Counted from the stretch's first letter, positions 1 through 12,070 are shown. The stretch: 64,000 bases of DNA from an uncultured Methanosarcinaceae archaeon (GCA_963847185.1 CAWJYV010000008.1:1024001-1088000), one strand, 5' to 3'. Notes: a model not told the origin generated them from the letters alone. Made by a program: numbers and translations.

Positions 1-1
1 C

Positions 2-1168
2 GTAGAAAGTGTTATCGGAATCTTTTCAGGAATCAGAATCTGCTTTGACAAGCAGAGAAGTATCAGAAAGCTTGAGGAACAGATAGCTTCCGGCAGGACT
101 TCAATAAAAGCTTACGAAACAAAGGTATCCGGGATTTTGCAGGAATGCAGCCGTTCAGTATCAGGGGTTTCTTTTGACACGGAAGTTGAAAAACTCCGTT
201 TAGACCTTGAGCTTGAATCTGAAAGACTTAGAAATCTGGAACAGCTTAAATTAAAATCCAAAGAGCTGGAGATCGAAATTAAAAATACCCTGAACAGGCA
301 CGAGGGAGACAGAAAAGAACTTACAACCTTCCTGGCTGCAGGCTGGGCCGAAACCGAAGACCAATTTTTTGAAAATGCAAGAATCTGGGAGCAAAGTACC
401 GGACTCAAAAGCAGGATTTACGAGGCGGAACAGCAAATCAGGAGGATTTCAGGGGATGGGGAAAAGTATGAGGCTTTTGTTGAAGAGCTTCAGAACACGG
501 ATCCCATTACTCTGCAAGAAGAAAGACAGAGGCTTGAGGAATGCCTTAAAGACCTGGACCAGAAAATATCTGAAGAAATGGACAGCCGCGGAGCAATAAG
601 AAATCAGATCGAGCAGCTTGAACATGAAGACGGAGGTTCTTTAACCCGACTCATGAAAGAGGGTCTGCTTGAGGAACTTCACGAGAAATCAAGAGACTGG
701 GCATCCCTTGTGCTCGCAAGAAAAATACTTGAAAAAGCTGTTGAAGTTTACGAAAAAGAAAGGCAGCCTGCAGTTATTATTGAAGCTCAAGCTTTTTTCT
801 CAAAGATTACAGGGGGCAGATACGCGCGGATTTATTCTCCTCTTAATTCGTCTCAAATTTACGTTGAAGATAGAGAAGGCCGTCAGAAGACTGTTACAGA
901 GCTTAGCCGCGGGACAGCCGAACAACTTTATCTCTCGCTAAGATTTGGTTTTATAAGAGAGTTTGAAAGACATTCGGAACCTCTACCTATTGTTTTTGAT
1001 GACATACTTGTAAACTTCGATCCCGAACGCTGCAGCAAGACCTGTGAAGCTATAAAAGACCTGGCAACAACCAACCAGATTTTCTACTTTACCTGTCACC
1101 CCGAAACTGTAGATATGCTTTCAGAAAGATTCCCTGAATGCCGGGTCGTTGATCTTGATAAAATTTAA
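2..1168 (+). CDS. YhaN/Rad50-like SMC-type AAA ATPase, C-terminal part (5' end outside window)
   Basis: Frame is open from the window start. Long coiled coil followed by ABC signature LSRGTAEQLYL, Walker B PIVFDDILVNFD and H-switch YFTCH. Confidence 0.85.
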   Translation, partial: VESVIGIFSGIRICFDKQRSIRKLEEQIASGRTSIKAYETKVSGILQECSRSVSGVSFDTEVEKLRLDLELESERLRNLEQLKLKSKELEIEIKNTLNRHEGDRKELTTFLAAGWAETEDQFFENARIWEQSTGLKSRIYEAEQQIRRISGDGEKYEAFVEELQNTDPITLQEERQRLEECLKDLDQKISEEMDSRGAIRNQIEQLEHEDGGSLTRLMKEGLLEELHEKSRDWASLVLARKILEKAVEVYEKERQPAVIIEAQAFFSKITGGRYARIYSPLNSSQIYVEDREGRQKTVTELSRGTAEQLYLSLRFGFIREFERHSEPLPIVFDDILVNFDPERCSKTCEAIKDLATTNQIFYFTCHPETVDMLSERFPECRVVDLDKI

Positions 1169-1173
1169 AAAAC

Positions 1174-1280
1174 AAGTTTGAGAAATGAAGTTTGAGAAAG
1201 AAAGTTTGAAAAAGAAAGTTTGAAAAAGAAAGTTTGAAAAAGAAAGTTTGAAAAATGAGTTTGAAAAATGAGTTTAAAAA
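1174..1280. repeat. Tandem repeat, ~13-14 bp unit (aagtttgaaaaaga), ~8 copies
   Basis: Directly visible between convergent stop codons. Confidence 0.9.
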
Positions 1281-1316
1281 AAGCTCGATACGAACTGTGT
1301 AAAAGGAAAATAGGCC

Positions 1317-2045
1317 TCAGGCAGTTTTCAATAATTTTTCAAGTTTTTGAATTCTATTAAGCTGTTTGAAAAGATAACGGCTATAATCCAATTCTGAACC
1401 TATGGAATCCATTTTTACTTTGATTTTTTCCCTTGAAGGATGCATTATCCAGTTCCTGAATCTGTCAAGTCCGCCGAATTGTTCAATATCTCTGATTGAT
1501 AAATCATGTTCCTGCTTGAAGGAATCATAATTTTTTAGAGCTACCAGATAATCATAAAAACTGCACTCCTCAAAAACAGACATCTCATATTCTTTCTTTT
1601 GGATTCTGCATTTTGGCTTTGCAATCTTTATAAATTCAGCTTCAGACATTCTTTCTTTAAAGAAGAGCTTCATCTGGGTTTCCAACCTGTAAAGCAATAG
1701 ATAAAAGAATACTCTGACAGCGCCTTTTCTTAGATCTGCAGCAGTAATTATCCCTACAACATCAGCATGAATTACAAAAAAGAAAGAGCTTCTATCCAGC
1801 ATTTTGATTAAAGAGATTATATCCAGGTCTTTTGAAACTATTTTATCTGGCAAAATGTAGTATTCTTTTGAGTACCTGCTGTCAAAATATTTAATAATGC
1901 TTCCATCCTCATTTTTAACAGGAAAAATAGTTATCTCTTTGTGCAACTCAGAATCTTGAGGATAAAAATAGAAGTCATCTTTTGGAGTCATTATCTGTTC
2001 TACGGTTAAACCCCTGTGAATTTGCTCAAATATATCATCATTCAC
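1317..2045 (-). CDS. Hypothetical protein with degenerate CBS-domain pair
   Basis: 242-aa ORF with LTVEQIMTP and VVGIITAADL, typical CBS motifs. C-terminal RNWIMH resembles a HEPN-like Rx4H motif. Confidence 0.6.
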   Translation of the reverse strand: MNDDIFEQIHRGLTVEQIMTPKDDFYFYPQDSELHKEITIFPVKNEDGSIIKYFDSRYSKEYYILPDKIVSKDLDIISLIKMLDRSSFFFVIHADVVGIITAADLRKGAVRVFFYLLLYRLETQMKLFFKERMSEAEFIKIAKPKCRIQKKEYEMSVFEECSFYDYLVALKNYDSFKQEHDLSIRDIEQFGGLDRFRNWIMHPSREKIKVKMDSIGSELDYSRYLFKQLNRIQKLEKLLKTA

Positions 2046-2646
2046 TTAAAACACCTAATTTTACCGACATCATTTTGAAAGGAGTAGGTTTCTTAGCTTA
2101 AATAGTACATAATAATATGGTATCTCCGAGGCAGTACAGCAATTTCTTGATATGCCCATTGAAAAGAAATGATACTTAACTTTGCTAAATGTATTAATCT
2201 GATTAATTAAAGTCTTACAGATAGGATTGGATAGAATTTATATATTTTTAGTGCAAAGGATCTGGCAAGTGCTACTCATGGTAACAGTATAAAAAGGTAA
2301 ATGTTATTTATGCCTTTCAAAAGAGCAACTTTCCATAACTCATAATCAAAAGTTTAAAGTCTCTTCTTTTCAAATTGGACTTTCCAATAAGTCAGGCCTC
2401 AAGTCACAGGTACCTTTCCCTACCCAAGCATCTTTCTTCTAATCTGTTATTGGCTCACGAAGACTTTGGTAATGTCCAGGCCCAAATTCAAGATCAAAGA
2501 GTATGAAGAGAAGAGGAAAAAGGGAAAAGAATAGGAAAAGAAGGAAAATATACTGACAAGATCAGATATTAGGACGGGTATATAAATAGATTTCACTCAA
2601 AGAAAAGCTGAAGGTAGAGACATGTCTCCCCTTCCAGAGAAAAAAC

Positions 2647-3096
2647 TCAAGCACCACCGGATGCTCCACCAGAGGCTCCGCCTGATGCACCACCGGAACC
2701 ACCATAGACTACTCCACCAGTAGCTATACCAGACGAACCGCCGCCAGAAGCTCCGCCAGAAGCGCCACCGGAACCACCATAGACTACTCCACCAGTAGCT
2801 GCACCAGATAAACCGCCGCCAGAAGACCCACCACGAGCTCCAGCAGATGAACCACCGCCAGAAGACCCAGCAGTAGCTTCACCAGATGAGCCGCCGCCAG
2901 AAACCTCACCACGAGCTCCAGCAGATGAATCACAACAGACTATCCCACCAGTAGCTTCACCAGATGAACCGCTACCAAAAATAGGAACTTTAATAGATTC
3001 TGCACTTAATGTAGCAGCTGCCACTAACATAACAAAAAAGACTACTGTGGAGATGCACAGCACCCTTTTTATTCTGTCAATCGCTTGTTTTCTCAT
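2647..3096 (-). CDS. Secreted Gly/Ser/Ala-rich repeat protein 1
   Basis: ATG at 3096 preceded by GGGGATGG RBS. Signal peptide MRKQAIDRIKRVLCISTVVFFVMLVAAATLSA, then ~12-aa SGGGSSGxATGG repeats. Confidence 0.8.
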   Translation of the reverse strand: MRKQAIDRIKRVLCISTVVFFVMLVAAATLSAESIKVPIFGSGSSGEATGGIVCCDSSAGARGEVSGGGSSGEATAGSSGGGSSAGARGGSSGGGLSGAATGGVVYGGSGGASGGASGGGSSGIATGGVVYGGSGGASGGASGGASGGA

Positions 3097-3232
3097 TTGT
3101 CCATCCCCTATTATTTGACTTTTATACTTACCTTTTGAAAGCAAAGCGAATTGAGTTATAACTATTTACTGCGCCAAAGAAAAAGCTGGAGGTGGAGAAA
3201 ATCTCCCCTTCCTCCCCTTCCAGAGAAGAAAC

Positions 3233-4226
3233 TCAAGCGCCGCCAGAGGCTCCACCAGAGCCCGCCACGAGCGCCACCGGAACCGCCAGAACCGCCACCG
3301 GATGCTCCACCAGAAGCTCCACCGGAACCACCAAAGCCGCCGCCGCCGGAAGCACCACCAGAAGCTCCACCAGAACCGCCGGAACCGCCACCGGATGCTC
3401 CACCAGAAGCTCCACCGGAACCACCAAAGCCGCCGCCGCCGGAAGCACCACCAGAAGCTCCACCAGAACCGCCGGAACCGCCACCGGAGGCTCCACCAGA
3501 AGCTCCACCGGAACCACCAAAGCCGCCGCCGCCGGAAGCACCACCAGAAGCTCCACCAGAACCGCCGGAACCGCCACCAGATGCTCCACCAGAGGCTCCA
3601 CCGGAACCGCCAAAACCGCCACCACCTGAAGCACCACCAGAGGCTCCACCGGAACCACCAAAGCCGCCGCCACCAGATGCTCCACCAGAGGCTCCACCGG
3701 AACCACCAAAGCCGCCGCCGCCAGAGGCTCCGCCAGAAGCTCCACCGGAACCACCAAAGCGGCCACCAAAGCGGCCACCAAAGCGGCCACCGGGACCGCC
3801 ACCACCAGAAGCGCCACCAGAAGCTCCACCGGAACCGCCGAAGAAGCCGCCACCGCCAGAAGCGCCACCAGAAGCTCCACCGGAACCGCCGAAGAAGCCG
3901 CCACCGCCAGAAGCGCCACCAGAAGCTCCACCGGAACCACCAGGACCGCCACCGCCAGAAGCGCCACCAGAAGCTCCACCGGAACCACCAGGACCGCCAC
4001 CGCCAGAAGCGCCACCAGAAGCTCCACCGGAACCGCCAGGACCGCCACCGCCAGAAGCGCCACCAGAAGCTCCACCGGAACCGCCAGGACCGCCACCACC
4101 AGAAGCACCACCAGAGGCTCCACCGGATTGAGCACATACTGCCTCAGCTGCCACTGATATTACAAAAAAGGCTACTACGCAAAAGCACAGCATCTTTTTC
4201 ATTCTATCAAGCGTTTGTCTTCCCAT
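3233..4226 (-). CDS. Secreted Gly/Ser/Ala-rich repeat protein 2 (silk-like); apparent +1 frameshift near the 3' end (~3261)
   Basis: Signal peptide homologous to both neighbours, then ~16-aa (SGGA)2SGGGG(F/P)GG repeats. Removing one G near 3261 gives the ending ASGGA-stop at 3233, with the same downstream sequence as protein 1. Confidence 0.8.
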
Positions 4227-4661
4227 TTAATCACTCCCCATATATTGTTATTAGTTAGATACAATTTCAGATGGTAATTTTCGCTCAATTCCCGTTGGCA
4301 AATGCAACTCATAGATAAAGGCATAGATAATTTGTTACTCATTCATTTAGATATATTTTTTAAAGATTATTGAATTGACAAATCACATTTTTTGCTATTT
4401 GTTAAGCATTTGCACCCTACAGCAAGCGATTTCGAATTGTACCACTAAGTAATAACTATCCAGAATACATAATAACTTGAGAAATATAAATAAGAAACCA
4501 ATATTAATCAAAACAAGATGTTATTTAGTCTAGGTTTCCACATGTTGTTTAAAATCTATATAAATATAATATTTAAATATTAAAAAAGGAACATCATAAA
4601 GATGAAGAACGTCAACTTTAATCTACATAGCTAATCATAAAAATAAGCAGTAAAAGATGAT

Positions 4662-5894
4662 TTACTGCTCTGAAGACCCGCTAAATAACGAATCATCTGA
4701 CATATTTTTTCCGTTAATGTTTACGTCATTGCCTGAGACGGTATTACCGTTGCCTCCCATATTGACGCCATTGCCTGAGACGGTATTACCGTCGCCCCCA
4801 ATATTGACGCCATTGCCTGAGACGGTATTACCGTCGCCCTCCATATTGACGCTTTTACCGCCTACATCACCAGAAGTAGCACTGCCAACACTATTTCCAT
4901 TGCCTCTAATATTGATACCATCACCGCCTACGCCACCAGAAGTAGCACTGCCAACACTATTACCACTACCATCAATATTGACACCTTTACCTCCTACACC
5001 TCCAGAAGTAGCACTGCCAACACTATTATCACTGCCACCAATATTGATGCCGTCACCACCTACACCTCCAGAAGTAGCGCTGCCAGCAATATTACCGCTG
5101 CCACCAATATTGACACCTTTACCACCTACTCCACCAGTAGCTCCTCCGGAAGCACCACTGCCAATGACGTCACCAGAAACACCGCCTGTAGCACTGCCAG
5201 CAATATTGCCGCTACCTCCAATATTGGTTCCGTCGCCACCTACTCCACCAGTAGCTCCACCGGATGCACCACTGCCAATAACGTCGCCAGAGATACCGCC
5301 TGTAGCACTACCGGCAATATTACCGCTACCTCCAATATTTATACCTTTACCACCTACGCCACCGGTAGCTCCGCCGGATGCACCACTGCCAATAACGTCA
5401 CCAGAAACACCGCCTGTAGCACTACCAGCAATATTGTTTCGGCCACCAATATTGATGCCGTCGCCGCCTACACCACCGGTAGCTCCGCCGGATGCACCAC
5501 TGCCAATAACGTCGCCAGAGATACCGCCTGTAGCACTACCAGCAATATTGTTTCGACCATCAACATTGATACCTTTACCACCTACGCCACCGGTAGCTCC
5601 GCCAGATGCACCACTGCCAATAACGTCACCAGAGATACCGCCTGTAGCACTGCCAGCAATATTACCACTGCCACAAACATTGATACCTTTACCACTTACT
5701 CCACCAGTAGCTCCACCGGATGCACCACTGCCAATAACGTCACCAGAGATACCGCCTGTAGCACTGCCAGCAATATTACCGTGACCTTTAAAAGGAACTG
5801 CATTTACTGTTGCAGCTGTAACTGATATTACAAGAAAGGTCAATAGCAAAATAGCCAAAATCTTTTTTAATCCGTCAAACGTCTGCTTCCCCAT
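4662..5894 (-). CDS. Secreted Gly-rich repeat protein 3 (38-aa repeats, beta-solenoid-like)
   Basis: Signal peptide MGKQTFDGLKKILAILLLTFLVISVTAATVNA. Repeats GNIAGSATGGISGDVIGSGASGGATGGVGGKGINIGGS, shortening toward the C terminus. Confidence 0.85.
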   Translation of the reverse strand: MGKQTFDGLKKILAILLLTFLVISVTAATVNAVPFKGHGNIAGSATGGISGDVIGSGASGGATGGVSGKGINVCGSGNIAGSATGGISGDVIGSGASGGATGGVGGKGINVDGRNNIAGSATGGISGDVIGSGASGGATGGVGGDGINIGGRNNIAGSATGGVSGDVIGSGASGGATGGVGGKGINIGGSGNIAGSATGGISGDVIGSGASGGATGGVGGDGTNIGGSGNIAGSATGGVSGDVIGSGASGGATGGVGGKGVNIGGSGNIAGSATSGGVGGDGINIGGSDNSVGSATSGGVGGKGVNIDGSGNSVGSATSGGVGGDGINIRGNGNSVGSATSGDVGGKSVNMEGDGNTVSGNGVNIGGDGNTVSGNGVNMGGNGNTVSGNDVNINGKNMSDDSLFSGSSEQ

Positions 5895-6558
5895 TAGCCA
5901 CACCATCTAAATTCTTACTAAAATTTTTCAATTTTAAAACTGTTTTTTTTCGCATTAATTTCTCAATTTGCATCATTGCAACTAATCTGACCCGCATTCT
6001 AGTTTACTTGCAAGAAATAAACGAAAAGTACTGCGAAAAAAAGATCAGATGCAAACAAGCAAATGTCTAGAATCTCATATTTTATTGGAAATTAAGGACA
6101 TTATTACTCATAATATCAATATATATTCGAATAAATTTTTTATTTTTTTATATTTTGTTTATATTTTAAGATTAATTTACTTAATAAATAAAAGAATTAA
6201 ATAAATTAATCAAAAAATTTTATTTTTATTGATAATAGACAAAATATCTAAATTATATAAGATGTATAGAAAAGAATATACTTAATTTTAATAATGTTTA
6301 AAAAAGTTTTTACTAAATTATTTTGTATAAAAATAGTCAAATGTAACCTGGTGGATTTGTACCAAAATGATGAAACTTGCTCTACTCGTAAAGAGCAGTT
6401 CTAGAACTTCTCAGAACGTTTTTTCTGAACATTTATTCCTAAAAATATATGCCCTTAGAAAAGAAACGATACTATAATTGCCAAATATGCTTTTAATAAG
6501 ATTTGAATCCATTCGAACGGAATATTAAATACATTTTTAAGTTGGGGGTATCAGGAAA

Positions 6559-6963
6559 ATGTTATTAATGGACATAGTAATGTGGGAACCGAAAGACTCC
6601 GAAAAAGTCGCGGAGCTCTATGCGAATTATAAATATCCGGAGAATATAAAAGTGCTCAATGAATGGTTTGACCTTACGGGATACCGCTTTTTCATAATTT
6701 ACGAAACTGATGACGAAAAAGCGTATGCATCTTCGGTTCTTCCTTTTATGGGATCCTGCTGGTTTGAAACATTTCCGGTTATGAAAGCAGAAGAATATAT
6801 CCAGCTAGCTCAGAAGCTGACTGAAGAAATGGGAGTTAAAAAAACCGGATCTGAAGAGACCAAGGGGTCTACAGGAGAAGTCCTGGAGCAAATTGAAAAT
6901 CTTGAAAAAAGAGTCGAACGTCTGGAACATCACTCCTTTGTCCAGCAGGAAGATACGACCTGA
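6559..6963 (+). CDS. DUF3303-family protein with C-terminal coiled coil
   Basis: WEP...YP..IKVL.EWFDLTG.R.F.IYE pattern of archaeal DUF3303 proteins. Confidence 0.7.
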   Translation: MLLMDIVMWEPKDSEKVAELYANYKYPENIKVLNEWFDLTGYRFFIIYETDDEKAYASSVLPFMGSCWFETFPVMKAEEYIQLAQKLTEEMGVKKTGSEETKGSTGEVLEQIENLEKRVERLEHHSFVQQEDTT

Positions 6964-7321
6964 AGATCTTCAAAACACGGTTAAGAATCGGACCTTAAGG
7001 GCCGATTGGATCTTAAGGCCCAGATTCACGAAAAACCTGGCATTAATGAAGCATATCAATTTTTCTTCTATTATTTTATCATTTAAAAGAGAACCAGATG
7101 AATAATAATAAAACAATAACTTTACATAGAATATTGTACATTCAAAAAGATGATCATTGCAGCCATTTTATAATAAGTTGAATTTCACTGGACAGATTTT
7201 TTATTCCTGATTTTTTGATTGATGGCTGTCAATTGTCAGCGAAATCAACCCTAAATTTTGACTATCCCAGAATAGATTAAAGAATCTAAAAGGGAAAAAT
7301 TGGATAAATTGGAGGAGTAGG

Positions 7322-7819
7322 ATGAATAAACAATATTTACCATTTTTTGCTGCAATTATTATTGCGCTTCTAGTAATTGCACCGGGCATTGCAGGGGCAG
7401 ATTCTAAGACTCAGTTTAGTTGCCCAACCGGATATCAGAATGTGACTGCCATTCAAGCTGAAAAAATTCTCGAAAAAGGAAATGTCTACCTTCTTGACGT
7501 TCGTATCCCTGCTGAATACAACTATACGCATATAGAAGGAGCAAAATTGATACCATTAAGAAATGCTTTCGGGTCAAACTTAAATCCAAGTACATTTTTG
7601 GAAAACAGGACAGTTGAATTGCCAAAGAACAAGAACACAAAGATAGTTGTTTACTGCAAGAGTGGAACCAGAAGTGCTCCAGCATGCGATTTCCTGGTAA
7701 AAATCGGTTACAAAAAGGTCTATAACATGCAGGGTGGCATTACTGAATGGGTAAAGACAGGATATCCGGTTATAGTGGACCCTACTTTCTGGACAGCTAA
7801 TTACCCGACAAAAGCATAA
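7322..7819 (+). CDS. Exported rhodanese-like domain protein
   Basis: Signal peptide; LLDVR..EY..HIEGA, active-site loop VYCKSGTRS, NMQGGITEW; GGAG RBS. Confidence 0.9.
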   Translation: MNKQYLPFFAAIIIALLVIAPGIAGADSKTQFSCPTGYQNVTAIQAEKILEKGNVYLLDVRIPAEYNYTHIEGAKLIPLRNAFGSNLNPSTFLENRTVELPKNKNTKIVVYCKSGTRSAPACDFLVKIGYKKVYNMQGGITEWVKTGYPVIVDPTFWTANYPTKA

Positions 7820-8209
7820 CAACATAGGCAATATTTTAGACTGAATTTAGACTGTATTAACTGTATCAACTGACTTAAACGGATTTTCAAATTCAGAAGG
7901 CGCATTTAACTCAGACTAATATGCATCTAATTGGTATTTATGTACAAATACTAAGTAGAACGATATCAATAGCCAACTCAGCTATAATTTAATCGGTTAA
8001 CTTTTGGTAACGATTTCTTTAACGTTGGTTATTGACTAATTTTTTCAGTTATTCGTATTTAGCCATCAAAAATTTTGAAAATTCAAGGAATCTCTTTGAG
8101 AACTCAAGAAATAATCACGAAATGACAGACATTTCTAAATTACGAAGACTCATAATTGAGAATCTCATGAAAAGAATTCGAGGATATGAACCATAATCAC
8201 GTATGGAGT

Positions 8210-8707
8210 TTATTTTTCAAGAGCGCTTTCAAACCTTTCCTGATTCATCCGGTAGATGTGCCACCCTTCTACAGGGCTTCCCCCCAGGTATTCATAGAAC
8301 TCTCTTGCAGGGTTCCAGTCAAGAACTGCCCATTCCATCCTTCCGCAGTTCCTTTCTTTTGCCAGCTTTACGCAGTGCAGGAACATTGCCTTTCCTATTC
8401 CTTTTCCGCGAAACTCTGGCTTTACAAAAATATCTTCAATATAAAGGCCCTGTTTCCCTACAAAAGTAGAGAAATTATGGAAAAAGACCGTAAAACCTGC
8501 AGGAACCCCCTCCAGTTCAGCAAAAAAAACCTCAGCATAGGGCTTCTCGCCGAACATGGATTTCATCAGGCTTTCTTCGGTTGCTGTAACCAGATGGGAA
8601 AGGTTTTCAAACTCGGCAATGCCTTTGACGAACTCAAGAATTAGAGGAACGTCTTTTTTCTCTGCAGTGCGAATCTTTAAACCGGTATTTATTTCAGTCT
8701 CTGCCAT
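8210..8707 (-). CDS. GNAT N-acetyltransferase (diamine acetyltransferase-like)
   Basis: LYIEDIFVKPEFRGKGIG acetyl-CoA motif and MEWAVLDWNPA. Confidence 0.9.
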   Translation of the reverse strand: MAETEINTGLKIRTAEKKDVPLILEFVKGIAEFENLSHLVTATEESLMKSMFGEKPYAEVFFAELEGVPAGFTVFFHNFSTFVGKQGLYIEDIFVKPEFRGKGIGKAMFLHCVKLAKERNCGRMEWAVLDWNPAREFYEYLGGSPVEGWHIYRMNQERFESALEK

Positions 8708-9011
8708 TTTTTATTCCTTTTTGAGTTGATAAGTTAAGATGATCATAGTAGAATTAATAATGGAATAATAATGGAATTGATAGATTGATTTTCGGTAGAT
8801 TGATTTTCCTCGATTTCATGCCACAAGTTATAATGAGGTTGAATTAATTAACCTGATTTCGAGCTTCAATTTATGATGAGGCAAATTAGTTTTCATTTCA
8901 CACTGCAAGTACATAAGTGCTGTTAGCTTAAAGATAGTCTTTAATTTAATTTATAGAAACAGATGTATTAATAATAAATAAATTCAAAGCCAAATCAAAG
9001 TTTTGTTTAAA

Positions 9012-9941
9012 ATGCTTAGTCAAGAAGATTTCAAACCAGTCACACTTGCCGACAGGGCCTTTTTCGAACGCCATTACGCGCTCTACCCGCAAACCCATAG
9101 CGACAATAATTTCACAAACATGGTCTGCTGGAGCCATTTTACTCAGTACAGCTATGCATATGTGGAAGGAAGTGTAATTCTTGCTTGCTCAACCCCCAGA
9201 GGGACCCGATTCCACCCTCCGATAGGCCCTCGTGATCCTGCACTTATGAAGGCTCTTATACAACTGGCGCTGGAAGTAGGAGACAATGATAAGCCCCTTA
9301 TAATCATCGACCCTGATACCGCAAAGTGGATAAAGGAAATCGATCCTGAACTTGTACTGGTTCCTAACCTGACCCGTTTCGAGTATGTGTACAGGACTTT
9401 AGACCTTACTAAACTCTCTGGAAAGAAATATCTTAAGATCCGGGGCCAGATCAACAGATTCCGGAAGAATTACCAGCACACAATAGAACAGGTAACTCCA
9501 GAAAATCGGGAAGAGATAATGGATTTTCTGGAAAAGTGGTGTGAGAGCAAAAGGTGCGAGGACGATTTTGTCCTTGCTCACGAAGTAGAGGCGATCTTTT
9601 ACGCAATAGAGCACTTCACAGAACTTCCCCTGCAGGGCCTATTGATCCGGGTCGATTCGAAGGTAGGTGCAATTTCTCTTTTCGAGCTTTTCAACGAAAA
9701 TACAGCCTTAATCCATTTTGAGAAAGGGCTCCCTGAATATGAAGGGATTTACAAGGTCATCAACACAGAAACAGCAGCTTTTCTTGCAGATAAGGTGGAA
9801 TACATAAACCGAGAAAGCGATCTGGGAATCAGCGGACTTCGAAAAGCAAAGCTGAGGTATCATCCGCACCACATGGTAAAAGTATATTCACTCAAACGTA
9901 GAACTTCTCCTTCCTTAACAGAAAATCCTTTTCACCTGTAA
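9012..9941 (+). CDS. DUF2156 / phosphatidylglycerol lysyltransferase-like GNAT domain protein
   Basis: YVY....L..L.GKKY, HFEKG, YINRESDLGISGLRKAKLRYHP motifs. Confidence 0.85.
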   Translation: MLSQEDFKPVTLADRAFFERHYALYPQTHSDNNFTNMVCWSHFTQYSYAYVEGSVILACSTPRGTRFHPPIGPRDPALMKALIQLALEVGDNDKPLIIIDPDTAKWIKEIDPELVLVPNLTRFEYVYRTLDLTKLSGKKYLKIRGQINRFRKNYQHTIEQVTPENREEIMDFLEKWCESKRCEDDFVLAHEVEAIFYAIEHFTELPLQGLLIRVDSKVGAISLFELFNENTALIHFEKGLPEYEGIYKVINTETAAFLADKVEYINRESDLGISGLRKAKLRYHPHHMVKVYSLKRRTSPSLTENPFHL

Positions 9942-10099
9942 AAAAGGGTTAAAAAAGTAAGAATAGAAAAAAGAGAAAGAGTTGAAAGAAAAAAAAGTTA
10001 TGAGAAAAGATTGAAAAAGAAGAGGTTATGAGAAAAAATTGAAAAAGAAAAGGTTATAAAAACTCATTTTTCCTTTAAAACTTATTCTTCCTTTAAAAC

Positions 10100-11386
10100 T
10101 CATTCTTCCTTTTTCTTTTCCTCAAAGGCTTCCTTTACGATTTTCATGGCGCAGAGATTTCCGCACATCGAACAGGCATCACTTTCTGTCTTTCGGGCAT
10201 CCCGGATTTTGCGAGCTCTTTCGCCGTCGATTGCGAGTTCAAACTGCTTTTCCCAGTCAAGGTCCCTGCGGGCATAGGCCATTGCTAAGTCTTTTTCCCA
10301 TGCACGTTCTCTTTGACCTTCTTTTATAAGGTCTATGGTGTGAGCTGCAATTTTTGTTACAAGCAGACCTTCTTTGATATCGTCAAGGGTTGGAAGGGCA
10401 AGATGTTCAGAAGGGGTTACCATACAGAGGAAATCCGTACCGTACATTCCTGCGATTGCTCCTCCGATTGCGCCTGTAATGTGGTCAAAGCCAGGGGCAA
10501 TATCGGTAACAAGAGGGCCCAGGAGGTAAAGAGGGGCGTTATTACAGAGTTCCTTCATGCCTCTGACGCTGAGTTCGATCTCATTTAAGGGAACATGGCC
10601 AGGGCCTTCAACAAAAGTCTGGACATTGGCAGCCCTTGCCCGTTTTACAAGTTCTCCAAGCGTAATGAATTCCATGAATTTCGGGCGGTCGGAAGCATCG
10701 GCAATACAGCCAGGACGCATACCATCTCCAAGGCTCAGGGTCATGTCGTATTCTTTTGCGATTTCCATGAGGTAGTCGTATTCTGTGTAAAAGGGATTGT
10801 CTTCCCCGTTGTGCAGCATCCAGGCAAGTGTAAAAGAACCTCCGCGGCTAACGACATTCATTATTCTGTCACTCTGGCGCAGGCGTTCAAGGGAGTTTAA
10901 GTTGATGCCGACATGCACGGTTACAAAGTCCACGCCCTGTTTGGCATGTTTCCTGACAGCATTGAACATGTCATCAGACGTCATTTCCACAACAACTTTG
11001 CTGGAGGCTGCAGCCTGGTAAATCGGAACGGTTCCTACCGGAATGTTTACAGCTTTAAGGATGCGGGTGCGGATTTCATCCAGATCCCCGCCTGTGGAAA
11101 GGTCCATGACTGCATTAGCTCCCAGAGCTTCTGCAGCCTTTGCTTTTTCGACTTCAGCATCAATGTCAATACAGTCCCTGGAAGTTCCTATATTGGCATT
11201 GATCTTTGTGCTCATGTACTTGCCAATCCCGACAGGAAGGGTTTCTCGCCTATCGTTTTTAGGAATGGCAATCAGCCCTTTTGCCACGCAGGAACGGACA
11301 ACTTCGGGATCTATTCCTTCAGTTTTTGCTACGGCTTCTATTGAGGGGGTGATGATTCCCTTCTTTGCATCTTCCATCAGTGTCAT
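10100..11386 (-). CDS. thiC: Phosphomethylpyrimidine synthase ThiC (ThiC/BzaF family radical SAM)
   Basis: [34 protein letters not shown] and C-terminal CSMCGNLC cluster motif. Confidence 0.9.
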
Positions 11387-12070
11387 TGCTACTCCAGATT
11401 GTTAAGTGGATGAGACATTATAACGCGATATAAATTAGGAAGTACTGATAATAAAAATATGTCAATATTAACAATTGTAATTAAACCGACATATTATATT
11501 GACCCTATTAGAATAAATGGTATAAAGATAAATCGGGGTGTTTAAGTCTCGCAGAGTAGAACAGACAGTACACGGATATATATCTTTTCACATTCGTGAA
11601 GTCATTTTATAAAGTATAAGTAAACAAATATATAAATAATGTAAGCCTATTATGTATCGTGTAGATGTAGAAAAAATTGTGGGATCGATTAAAAAGTAAA
11701 GGATTTTTACAGATAGAAGACCTTATTAAACTGGCGTATACAGAAAAAAAATAAGAAAATGGAAGCTGGAAAGCTTTTCCTTTAAATTTCTCTATATGCT
11801 TTCTTGTGCATATTCTTACACATTTCCTTTGCATTTCTTACATATTTCCTTGAGATTTGTTTGAGATTTATATAATTTTATATATCAAAAATATCTTTAC
11901 CAGATCCCGAAAATGTCTCAAGCTGTTCCCTAAATATTCAACTGATCTCAACCGGATATCAATAATCTAAAAAATATCTTAACCGGATATCAAGATATTC
12001 CAACTAATCCAGAACAACCTTCAAATTATCAAAATTTAGATTATCACAATAACAAGTTAAGGTACTCGAT

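Follow-up and report, generated by a model that had tools for sequence, protein, structure and literature searches.

What do neighbouring genes encode when most of their length is low-complexity repeat, and can such a reading frame be trusted as a gene at all? This question is raised by positions 2647-5894 of a 64,000-nucleotide (nt) stretch of DNA, here called the window, from an uncultured Methanosarcinaceae archaeon (GCA_963847185.1, CAWJYV010000008.1:1024001-1088000). The region carries three co-oriented open reading frames (ORFs) on the minus strand, designated genes 1, 2 and 3, which encode secreted-type Gly/Ser/Ala-rich repeat proteins. A preliminary description of this DNA had proposed them as candidates for an archaeal silk- or amyloid-like matrix. 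Our analysis indicates that the trio are tandem paralogues in a genus-specific family, in which a conserved signal of ~32 residues precedes fast-evolving low-complexity bodies. The family is the more interesting result: it is a conserved export label placed on hundreds of unrelated low-complexity cargos within one genus.

The length of the ORFs alone is no evidence for the trio, as the repeats can be read openly in each of the six frames (for example, 3151-4131 and 4657-5784 on the plus strand). The Gly-rich frame is set apart by its signal-peptide homology, by Shine-Dalgarno (SD)-like sites, and by the lowest ratio of nonsynonymous to synonymous differences (pN/pS) among the six frames. The SD-like sequences GGTG, GGAGTG and GGGGATG, as read from the sequence, are located 6-12 nt before the three starts, and an ATG at 5906 is an in-frame alternative start further upstream for gene 3. 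The pN/pS values were obtained between repeats, and the repeat pairs are not independent of one another. For the six units of 38 amino acids (aa) in gene 3, pS was 0.29 and pN was 0.067 in the Gly-rich frame, giving a ratio of 0.23. The antisense frame sharing the third codon positions was the next-lowest with 0.35, and the remaining four frames gave 1.0-2.8. In gene 2, an identical 11-aa core is found in 17 of 18 units and is written in nine DNA versions, with a pS of 0.33 and a pN of 0, the latter partly by construction because the units were chosen by peptide. The differences between repeats are mainly synonymous in the Gly-rich frame, which supports selection on the protein and not on the DNA repeat. 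The earlier observation that third codon positions vary between repeats is confirmed, and its conclusion of protein-level selection supported, by the ratio in gene 3 and by the nine versions of one core in gene 2.

The N-termini of the three proteins align with 16 invariant columns, including M1, Q4, D7, K10, L13, F20, V22, V25, A27 and A32, and these columns fit the motif of the homologous signal peptide that had been assigned to the three co-oriented genes. The consensus of the family signal, over ~32 residues, is MGKQxFDRIKKxLxILxxVFFVxSVTAAxVSA. The n-region contains K/R, small residues occupy positions -3 and -1, and Ala at -1 is nearly invariant across the family in the alignments. A charged n-region, one hydrophobic h-region and small residues at -3/-1 are the features of a Sec-type (class I) signal peptide, and the cleavage sites in Table 1 were predicted from the alignment. 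The Kyte-Doolittle hydropathy in a 19-residue window (KD19) was 2.5-2.65 at residues 5-37 and 0.44-0.70 at most elsewhere. No C-terminal anchor, that is, no PGF-CTERM or similar sorting signal and no transmembrane helix, was detected by NCBIfam, Pfam or KD19. Neither Pfam nor NCBIfam assigned any family to the three proteins, and Pfam gave no match at E <= 0.1 or even at E <= 10. The lack of a catalytic domain and of an anchor, as described earlier, was thus upheld by Pfam, NCBIfam and hydropathy, the sole hydrophobic segment being N-terminal. Each of the three proteins has zero or one N-glycosylation sequon. A class III (pilin-type) signal peptide was rejected, as the K/R-G/A cleavage motif does not occur ahead of the h-region.

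In the preliminary description, the signal peptide was regarded as distinctive of the trio. It turned out to be a genus-wide label on hundreds of unrelated low-complexity proteins, and for this reason the interesting question shifts from the trio to the family. A first profile, made from six N-termini of the genome to which the window belongs (G000), the trio among them, matched 19 fragments of that genome at E <= 1e-3, of which 13 were beyond the six profile members. A second profile had 21 rows and 33 columns with a mean column identity of 67%, and its rows were paralogues with unrelated bodies. This profile matched 57 of the 59 genomes of the genus at E <= 1e-5, with 1-103 matches per genome and ~950 in total, and the proposed search for the signal-peptide family across the genus thereby had a positive outcome. 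When 151 genomes of the order were drawn, 11 of the 12 other genomes of the genus matched (2-23 each), and other genera gave only single matches with E values of 8e-5 to 1e-3; the three of these that are listed cover the hydrophobic core only. The family is large and specific to this Methanosarcina-like genus, and it is apparently undescribed. A literature search, in which subscription journals and supplementary tables were outside the scope, and the portions of PMC4158269, PMC12369344, PMC5368272 and PMC4350412 that were consulted yielded no account of the trio or its signal-peptide family. Exact look-up of the trio and of seven family members in a protein collection returned no entry. The family is expanded in five assemblies that are 76-92% complete (G018, G064, G065, G067 and G068), with 71-103 matches each against 1-28 elsewhere.

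The bodies behind this signal are diverse. Those in G000 are K/W/N-rich, G/C/W-rich, G/Y/D-rich or S/C-rich, and one member of 519 residues, by our reading, carries YVTN-type repeats. Sampled members in other genomes have G/H, G/Y/W, H/D/F, T/K/A, P/E/T or G/N bodies and are often in tandem; they lean towards Gly-rich ones because the sample was drawn by similarity to genes 2 and 3. In two genomes (G053, contig C99, locus L025; G072, contig C212, locus L026), a G/N-rich member of 411-447 aa with ~50-aa repeats (LQNLNLAIGG strands) adjoins a ~620-aa T/G/N/A/S-rich member full of N-x-T/S sequons. These pairs are a further example, from other species, of long secreted genes of low complexity in tandem.

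Several further members of the family in G000 lie outside the window. At C8:75507-77270, there is a tandem pair with Gly/Cys/Trp-rich bodies containing GGCGGGCGGC...DWNDGWFGG and DDLGIG repeats, a composition which we take to be reminiscent of precursors of thiazole/oxazole-modified peptides or of metal binders. Lys/Trp/Asn/Glu-rich members with WDKEKKKW-type repeats were observed at C8:222996-224870, C7:799250-799643, C10:588890-589285 and C10:169820-170236; two are identical copies on different contigs, and this type of body is the best conserved across the genus (L010, L011, L038 and L040). At 12-18 kb before the window, the family signal peptide is joined to two cupin domains (L035:4613-5875) and to a 256-aa Asn-rich protein without a domain (L035:8096-8866), and a 298-aa right-handed beta-helix protein is encoded near these two.

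The mature part of gene 1 contains 39% Gly, 21% Ser and 14% Ala, and its body combines motifs of the gene 2 type (GGSGGASGGASGG) with motifs of the gene 3 type (ATGGVVYGG). Tandem Repeats Finder gave periods of 39 and 78 nt, corresponding to 13 and 26 aa, and the repeats described earlier for gene 1 therefore stand, although their length of ~12 aa was approximate. The mature part of gene 2 contains 56% Gly, 18-19% Ser and 10-11% Ala. Its period of 48 nt, or 17.7 copies of 16 aa (same program), bears out the ~16-aa G/S/A repeats of the preliminary description; a super-period of 93 nt was also found. SGGASGGASGG occurs 17 times, spaced by GGPGG, GGFFGG, GGFGG or GSGG, with (RFGG)x3 in the centre, and residues that are beta-branched or charged are almost absent. 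A sequence search of the PDB with gene 2 yielded a single match, the Gly/Arg-rich tail of fibrillarin, with an E value of 0.023 and of compositional character only. No three-residue phase of Gly was detected in any of the three proteins (0.58/0.53/0.56 for gene 2, 0.37/0.36/0.36 for gene 3 and 0.46/0.33/0.38 for gene 1). The triplet pattern of collagen-like or polyglycine-II proteins is accordingly absent; gene 2, with >50% Gly, is still compatible with a polyglycine-II conformation. The fibres, gels, amyloid, polyglycine-II, aggregates or biofilm suggested earlier for the trio found no support in our analysis.

Genes 1 and 2 are duplicates including their untranslated regions (UTRs), because their 3' ends are homologous through the stop codon into the 3' UTR. 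After a 2-base gap relative to gene 1, the ancestral TGA of gene 2 (3233-3235) is out of frame, and the ORF reads on through the old 3' UTR hairpin (3186-3223) with its U-rich tract to a TAG at 3162. An ORF in the alternative frame, 3233..4135, closes at the ancestral stop and ends with ...GSGGASGGA, and codon 351, in the gene 2 tail, is a stop in an environmental variant. The terminator-like hairpin with a U-rich tract right after the gene 1 stop is homologous to the hairpin within the gene 2 tail. In comparison with shuffled sequences, the hairpin energies of genes 1 and 3 were not better (z -0.13 and -0.42), and that of gene 2 had a z-score of -1.96. An Rfam scan of positions 1-12000 gave no match. 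Gene 3 has the signal peptide and a GASGGATGG-type core in common with genes 1 and 2.

In the mature part of gene 3, Gly accounts for 36% of the residues, Ser for 13.5%, Asn and Val for 9% each and Ile for 8.5%; its net charge is acidic, with 21 D/E (19 of them Asp) against 11 K/R. Its periods by Tandem Repeats Finder are 114 nt (38 aa, 6.2 copies), 66 nt (22 aa, four copies), 132 nt and 42 nt (14 aa, three copies). The 38-aa repeats had been described correctly, and the 22-aa and 14-aa repeats were missing from that account. All three repeat types have two short beta-like motifs in common, N-[IST]-[AV] and G-[IV]-N-[IVM], and K and D alternate at one repeat position through units 2-10. Seven nonapeptides of the form GGxGx[DK]xU were counted, against a mean of 0.23 in shuffled sequences, with the repeats not being independent. 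Three are exact GGxGxDxUx sequences and four have Lys in place of Asp, and GG[IV]SGDVIG occurs six times. By direct reading of the repeats, the nonapeptides are non-contiguous, with a 9+8+9+12 arrangement in each 38-aa unit.

The bodies of the trio are lineage-restricted and have no homologue beyond the closest lineage. In a word-indexed search with gene 3, none of 8000 candidates reached E <= 0.001; with gene 1, the same search returned a single hypothetical protein of 168 aa, aligned over 15% of the query. An exhaustive HMMER search with gene 3 against 1.84 billion representatives returned 13 matches, with no homologue of the body among the six retrieved. Five of these six were rejected as matches of repeat against repeat with unrelated proteins, among them a fish butyrophilin-like protein and a GH113 enzyme; the sixth, the 85-aa P0007, has only the signal peptide in common with gene 3. 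An ESM Atlas search gave no usable match, and a sequence search of the PDB with gene 3 found nothing. Within the genus, gene 3 matched 17 of 41 genomes (G000 included), all of them in the genus, and the non-self matches were N-terminal only. Gene 2 matched 28 of the 59 genus genomes (G000 included), nearly all over residues 1 to ~90. The exceptions were the G/N-rich proteins of G053 and G072 and an anchored 502-aa protein of G006 (L018), which was ruled out as a relative of gene 2, since its signal peptide differs, its repeats are of the GGDT type and a hydrophobic helix lies at its C-terminus.

The closest relative, G009, has ~94% DNA identity, with flanks of 92-96%. One of its contigs includes the first 45 codons of gene 3 before it ends, with residues 1-45 being 100% identical, and another (C98) ends 100 nt before the gene 1 stop, which is at the same place as in G000. 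Since both cluster ends sit at contig ends, the cluster is very probably present in G009 and the assembly broken at the repeats. Further upstream of gene 3, G009 has an AT-rich insertion of ~75 nt. In other species, no synteny is seen for the region that the flanking genes enclose. In environmental data, part of 4400-6400 was contained in 20 of the 24 runs listed, from 11 studies, and none of the runs listed contained half of the sampled words of this segment. In the DNA contigs of a sludge metagenome (X1), 30 of 30 bins were covered, corresponding to the whole stretch. Among 13 of the ~103 differences in the environmental population, the changes in the bodies were synonymous or conservative.

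From these features, we propose that the trio contributes extracellular structural material, a reading to which we give a little less than an even chance. The signal peptide would be cut after a small-x-small site (VNA, VCA or LSA), and the bodies would be released outside the membrane. The gene 3 product would be an acidic beta-solenoid rod, in which the 38-, 22- and 14-aa repeats form the coils, each with short N-x-V / V-N-I strands, Gly-rich arcs and turns of the GGxGx(D/K)xUx type resembling those of RTX proteins, with K and D alternating from coil to coil. The gene 2 product would be a flexible, almost uncharged Gly/Ser/Ala chain with Phe or Pro every 16-31 residues in a 'sticker-and-spacer' layout, and the gene 1 product a short hybrid of the two types. 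Together, they would serve as a non-enzymatic component of a coat or matrix, with no role as enzyme, receptor or transporter. A broader idea, which we consider rather unlikely, is an 'extracellular low-complexity proteome' of Methanosarcina, where the signal is an address label for hundreds of cargos shaping the material outside the S-layer and gene 3 forms a new kind of beta-roll, held by alternating Lys/Asp ladders and not by calcium as in RTX rolls. Such a label might be recognized in a dedicated step of export, processing or placement.

The common beta-like motifs, the K/D alternation and the excess of nonapeptides make the sequence features fit a solenoid for gene 3. The best AlphaFold model of residues 230-410 is a beta-solenoid with a strand every ~11 residues, a predicted local distance difference test (pLDDT) score of 56.3 and a predicted template modelling (pTM) score of 0.51. 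In a VIA search with this model, all 50 matches listed were beta-helices or beta-solenoids, mostly with a root-mean-square deviation of ~3 A across 150-181 of the 181 residues; their Z scores were 9.6-12.5, and values below about 13 in repeat proteins can mean only a common arrangement. They include tailspikes, alginate and pectate lyases, NosD, autotransporter and two-partner adhesins, hexapeptide acetyltransferases and a Ca2+-dependent antifreeze beta-helix (3p4g, Z 10.6). The beta-like segments of the preliminary description are in this sense retained for gene 3, as a stacked-repeat, beta-rich character in a low-confidence model of residues 230-410. A complex prediction with three copies of this segment scored 0.00, which speaks neither for nor against self-association.

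Several observations, the Z range just given among them, count against the structural proposal. The whole mature gene 3 was modelled poorly by AlphaFold without an alignment (pLDDT 36.4), the other four of the five models of residues 230-410 scored 28-44, and Foldseek with the best model found nothing at E <= 0.001. The K/D alternation may equally be read as a relic of two-unit duplications, in line with the 132-nt period; K-units are slightly closer to one another (mean ~12.7 differences) than to D-units (~16.5). The bodies could be dispensable, because homologues outside the closest lineage are lacking. Transcription is a weak hint only, because it is seen in assembled contigs with possible DNA carry-over: a metatranscriptome (X18) of the same study as X1 has one 323-nt contig at 5002-5324 in gene 3 with 8 differences (~97.5% identity), and a run whose RNA label is a guess (X17) has nine contigs spread across all three genes, where stretches without RNA-contig cover carry no information on silence. 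As to cleavage, the consulted sections of a proteomic report on M. mazei (PMC4350412) describe excision of a signal peptide only in the S-layer protein among 31 recovered N-termini, and indicate that predictors over-call signal-peptide cleavage.

The same sections, according to which predicted Methanosarcina signal peptides were mostly found uncleaved (PMC4350412), favour a signal anchor that stays in place, in which case the Gly-rich bodies would be tethered to the membrane as a surface brush or as a spacer layer under or through the S-layer. Conservation over the N-terminal 33 residues, at the 67% mean column identity of the 21 paralogues, is unusual for a signal peptide, and the h-region is of membrane-spanning length (KD19 at least 1.6 from residue 5-8 to residue 35-37). 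Nevertheless, the near-invariant Ala at -1 with a small residue at -3 is the pattern of signal peptidase I, and the proteins in those sections (PMC4350412) are a small concanavalin A-bound set and not the trio family; we regard tethering as somewhat unlikely. It is unlikely that the trio are young, fast-evolving and largely dispensable ORFs, inflated by repeat slippage behind a working export signal. The restriction of the bodies to the closest lineage, the frameshifted tail of gene 2 and the lack of synteny between the flanks in other species would suit such an origin. The predominance of synonymous differences, the preservation of both cluster ends in G009 with the gene 3 start and its 138 nt upstream almost unchanged, and the recovery of the locus from several environmental DNA runs argue against it.

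The tandem arrays, the copy number of 1-103 per genome, and the conserved signal followed by radically divergent mature parts are also what would be expected of secreted bioactive products, such as competition or antimicrobial agents or metal binders, with the trio as their Gly-rich members. The G/H-, G/C/W- and K/W-rich paralogues have compositions like those of Gly/His-rich antimicrobial peptides and metal-binding proteins. However, the mature parts of genes 2 and 3, at 322-378 residues, are far beyond typical peptides, gene 2 is almost uncharged and gene 3 acidic, and the scan of neighbouring genes turned up none for immunity, maturation or dedicated export; we judge this explanation quite improbable. 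Gene 3 by itself might bind calcium as a beta-roll or beta-helix similar to those of RTX proteins or bacterial antifreeze adhesins, acting as an adhesin or an ion-dependent rod and not as a matrix polymer, to which its exact and Lys-variant nonapeptides, the six GG[IV]SGDVIG sequences, the 19 Asp of its acidic mature part and the place of 3p4g among the VIA matches listed would point. Every second repeat has Lys in place of the key Asp, the nonapeptides do not follow one another directly, the fold match is to beta-helices in general, and the Pfam search was negative even at its loosest threshold, where HMMER filters lose weak matches. Calcium binding of this kind is highly improbable, and extracellular structural material remains our preferred reading for the trio.

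Table 1. Positions of the features in the window. Profile E values of the three signal peptides are partly circular, the trio being rows of the 21-row profile itself.
Feature	Position	Strand	Description
Gene 1	2647-3096	minus	149-aa precursor, counted from the family-type start
Gene 2	3162-4226	minus	354-aa precursor
Gene 3	4662-5894	minus	410-aa precursor
Gene 1 signal peptide, 32 aa	3001-3096	minus	predicted cleavage after LSA; profile E 4.3e-16
Gene 2 signal peptide, 32 aa	4131-4226	minus	predicted cleavage after VCA; profile E 5.6e-18
Gene 3 signal peptide, 32 aa	5799-5894	minus	predicted cleavage after VNA; profile E 2.6e-17
Hairpin and U-rich tract after gene 1	2599-2634	minus	fold z-score -0.13, not significant by energy alone
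Frameshifted tail of gene 2, last 32 residues	3162-3260	minus	2-base gap against gene 1 near 3260/3261
Six 38-aa repeats of gene 3	5094-5777	minus	NIAGSATGG[IV]SGDVIGSGASGGATGGVGG[KD]G[IV]N[IV]xGxx
Four 22-aa repeats of gene 3	4830-5093	minus	38-aa unit less a 16-aa insert; K/D alternation continues
Three 14-aa repeats of gene 3	4704-4829	minus	NTVSGNGVNIGGDG type; best-scoring part of the AlphaFold models
13-aa tail of gene 3	4665-4703	minus	after the 14-aa repeats
Probable 5' UTR of gene 3	5895-6032	minus	~138 nt, 2 mismatches between G000 and G009, flanks ~93-96% identical

The neighbouring genes were scanned as upstream ORFs of at least 110 aa and selected downstream ORFs. Their matches (CBS-like, SMC-like/AAA_27, Metallophos, DUF3303, rhodanese, cupin, beta-helix, AIM24 and DUF166) are unrelated to the trio or weak, and nucleator or secretion partner genes of the curli or Fap type were not found among them. 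A metallophosphoesterase gene is followed by a very long gene for an SMC-like ATPase of the AAA_27/AAA_23 type, which crosses the window start (window 2-2045 and L035:13981-17998). The next gene encodes a 242-aa protein weakly similar to NF053863, an anti-phage protein with a CBS domain (30.8 bits, where the cut-off is 260). These three genes may be a module for DNA repair or for defence. The SMC-like gene, with its stop at 1168, and the CBS-like gene, with its stop at 1317, converge, and an AT-rich minisatellite at 1160-1282 lies between their ends; it has ~7-9 copies of a 14-nt unit, AAGTTTGAAAAAGA, at 83-92% matches.

Methanosarcina cells change between single cells and large aggregates, attach to minerals and electrodes, and are dominant in many digesters. 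To our knowledge, hardly any proteins of their outer material are known beyond the S-layer protein, alongside methanochondroitin. The family provides a concrete gene set for this material, with the conserved signal peptide as a handle for finding its members. If the function proves trivial, the family would still show the birth and inflation of low-complexity secreted genes behind a fixed export signal.

As a family, the closest parallels in organization are the conotoxin superfamilies and the amphibian antimicrobial-peptide precursors, which likewise combine the same conserved signal with mature parts that cannot be aligned; here, the mature parts are low-complexity repeats and not Cys frameworks, and the host is a prokaryote. 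YSIRK-type signal peptides are an example of a signal that carries extra information. The sulfur-globule proteins SgpA-D are also small, signal-peptide-bearing, Gly-rich low-complexity coat proteins encoded by multigene sets, but they are bacterial and Gly/Tyr-rich, and the trio has no Pfam match to them. We know of no sulfur-globule biology in the Methanosarcina-like genus. MspA of Methanothrix/Methanosaeta is a functional amyloid of the archaeal sheath and thus an extracellular structural protein in a methanogen of the same order; no sequence relation of the trio to it was found, and Methanosarcina has no sheath.

For gene 3, the RTX beta-rolls and the Ca2+-dependent antifreeze beta-helices (3p4g) offer similar GGxGxDxUx-type turns, an acidic body and a solenoid, the last as modelled here. 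Gene 3 differs from them in having no HemolysinCabind match, in the alternation of Asp with Lys, in the interruption of its nonapeptides, and in an N-terminal signal peptide instead of the context of a C-terminal type I secretion signal. Curli CsgA and Pseudomonas FapC resemble gene 3 in being secreted and enzyme-free with imperfect tandem repeats of ~20 residues, and the 22-aa units of gene 3 are likewise predicted to form two short strands per coil with Gly/Asn turns. In comparison with these proteins, gene 3 is ~3 times longer, with varying coil lengths (38/22/14), far more Gly and an archaeal host; it has no match to Curlin_rpt or any other Pfam family and no partner genes among the neighbours scanned. 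In Foldseek, FapC appeared as a non-significant row at rank 20 with an E value of 4.8.

Gene 2 resembles, in composition only, the eukaryotic glycine-rich proteins, such as spider silks with GGX/GPGGX motifs, glycine-rich proteins of plant cell walls, the glycine loops of keratin and loricrin, and the spacers of FG-nucleoporins, having >55% Gly, Ser/Ala spacers, periodic aromatic residues or Pro, and almost no charge. GGX and GPGGS motifs are present in it. Unlike spider silk and fibroin, the trio lacks poly-Ala or (GA)n blocks and silk terminal domains, and has no homology to them; it is encoded by an archaeon and carries Sec-type export signals. If the gene 3 product is indeed a solenoid rod and the gene 2 product a flexible chain, they would be the first archaeal counterparts of the curli-like proteins and of the eukaryotic glycine-rich structural proteins.

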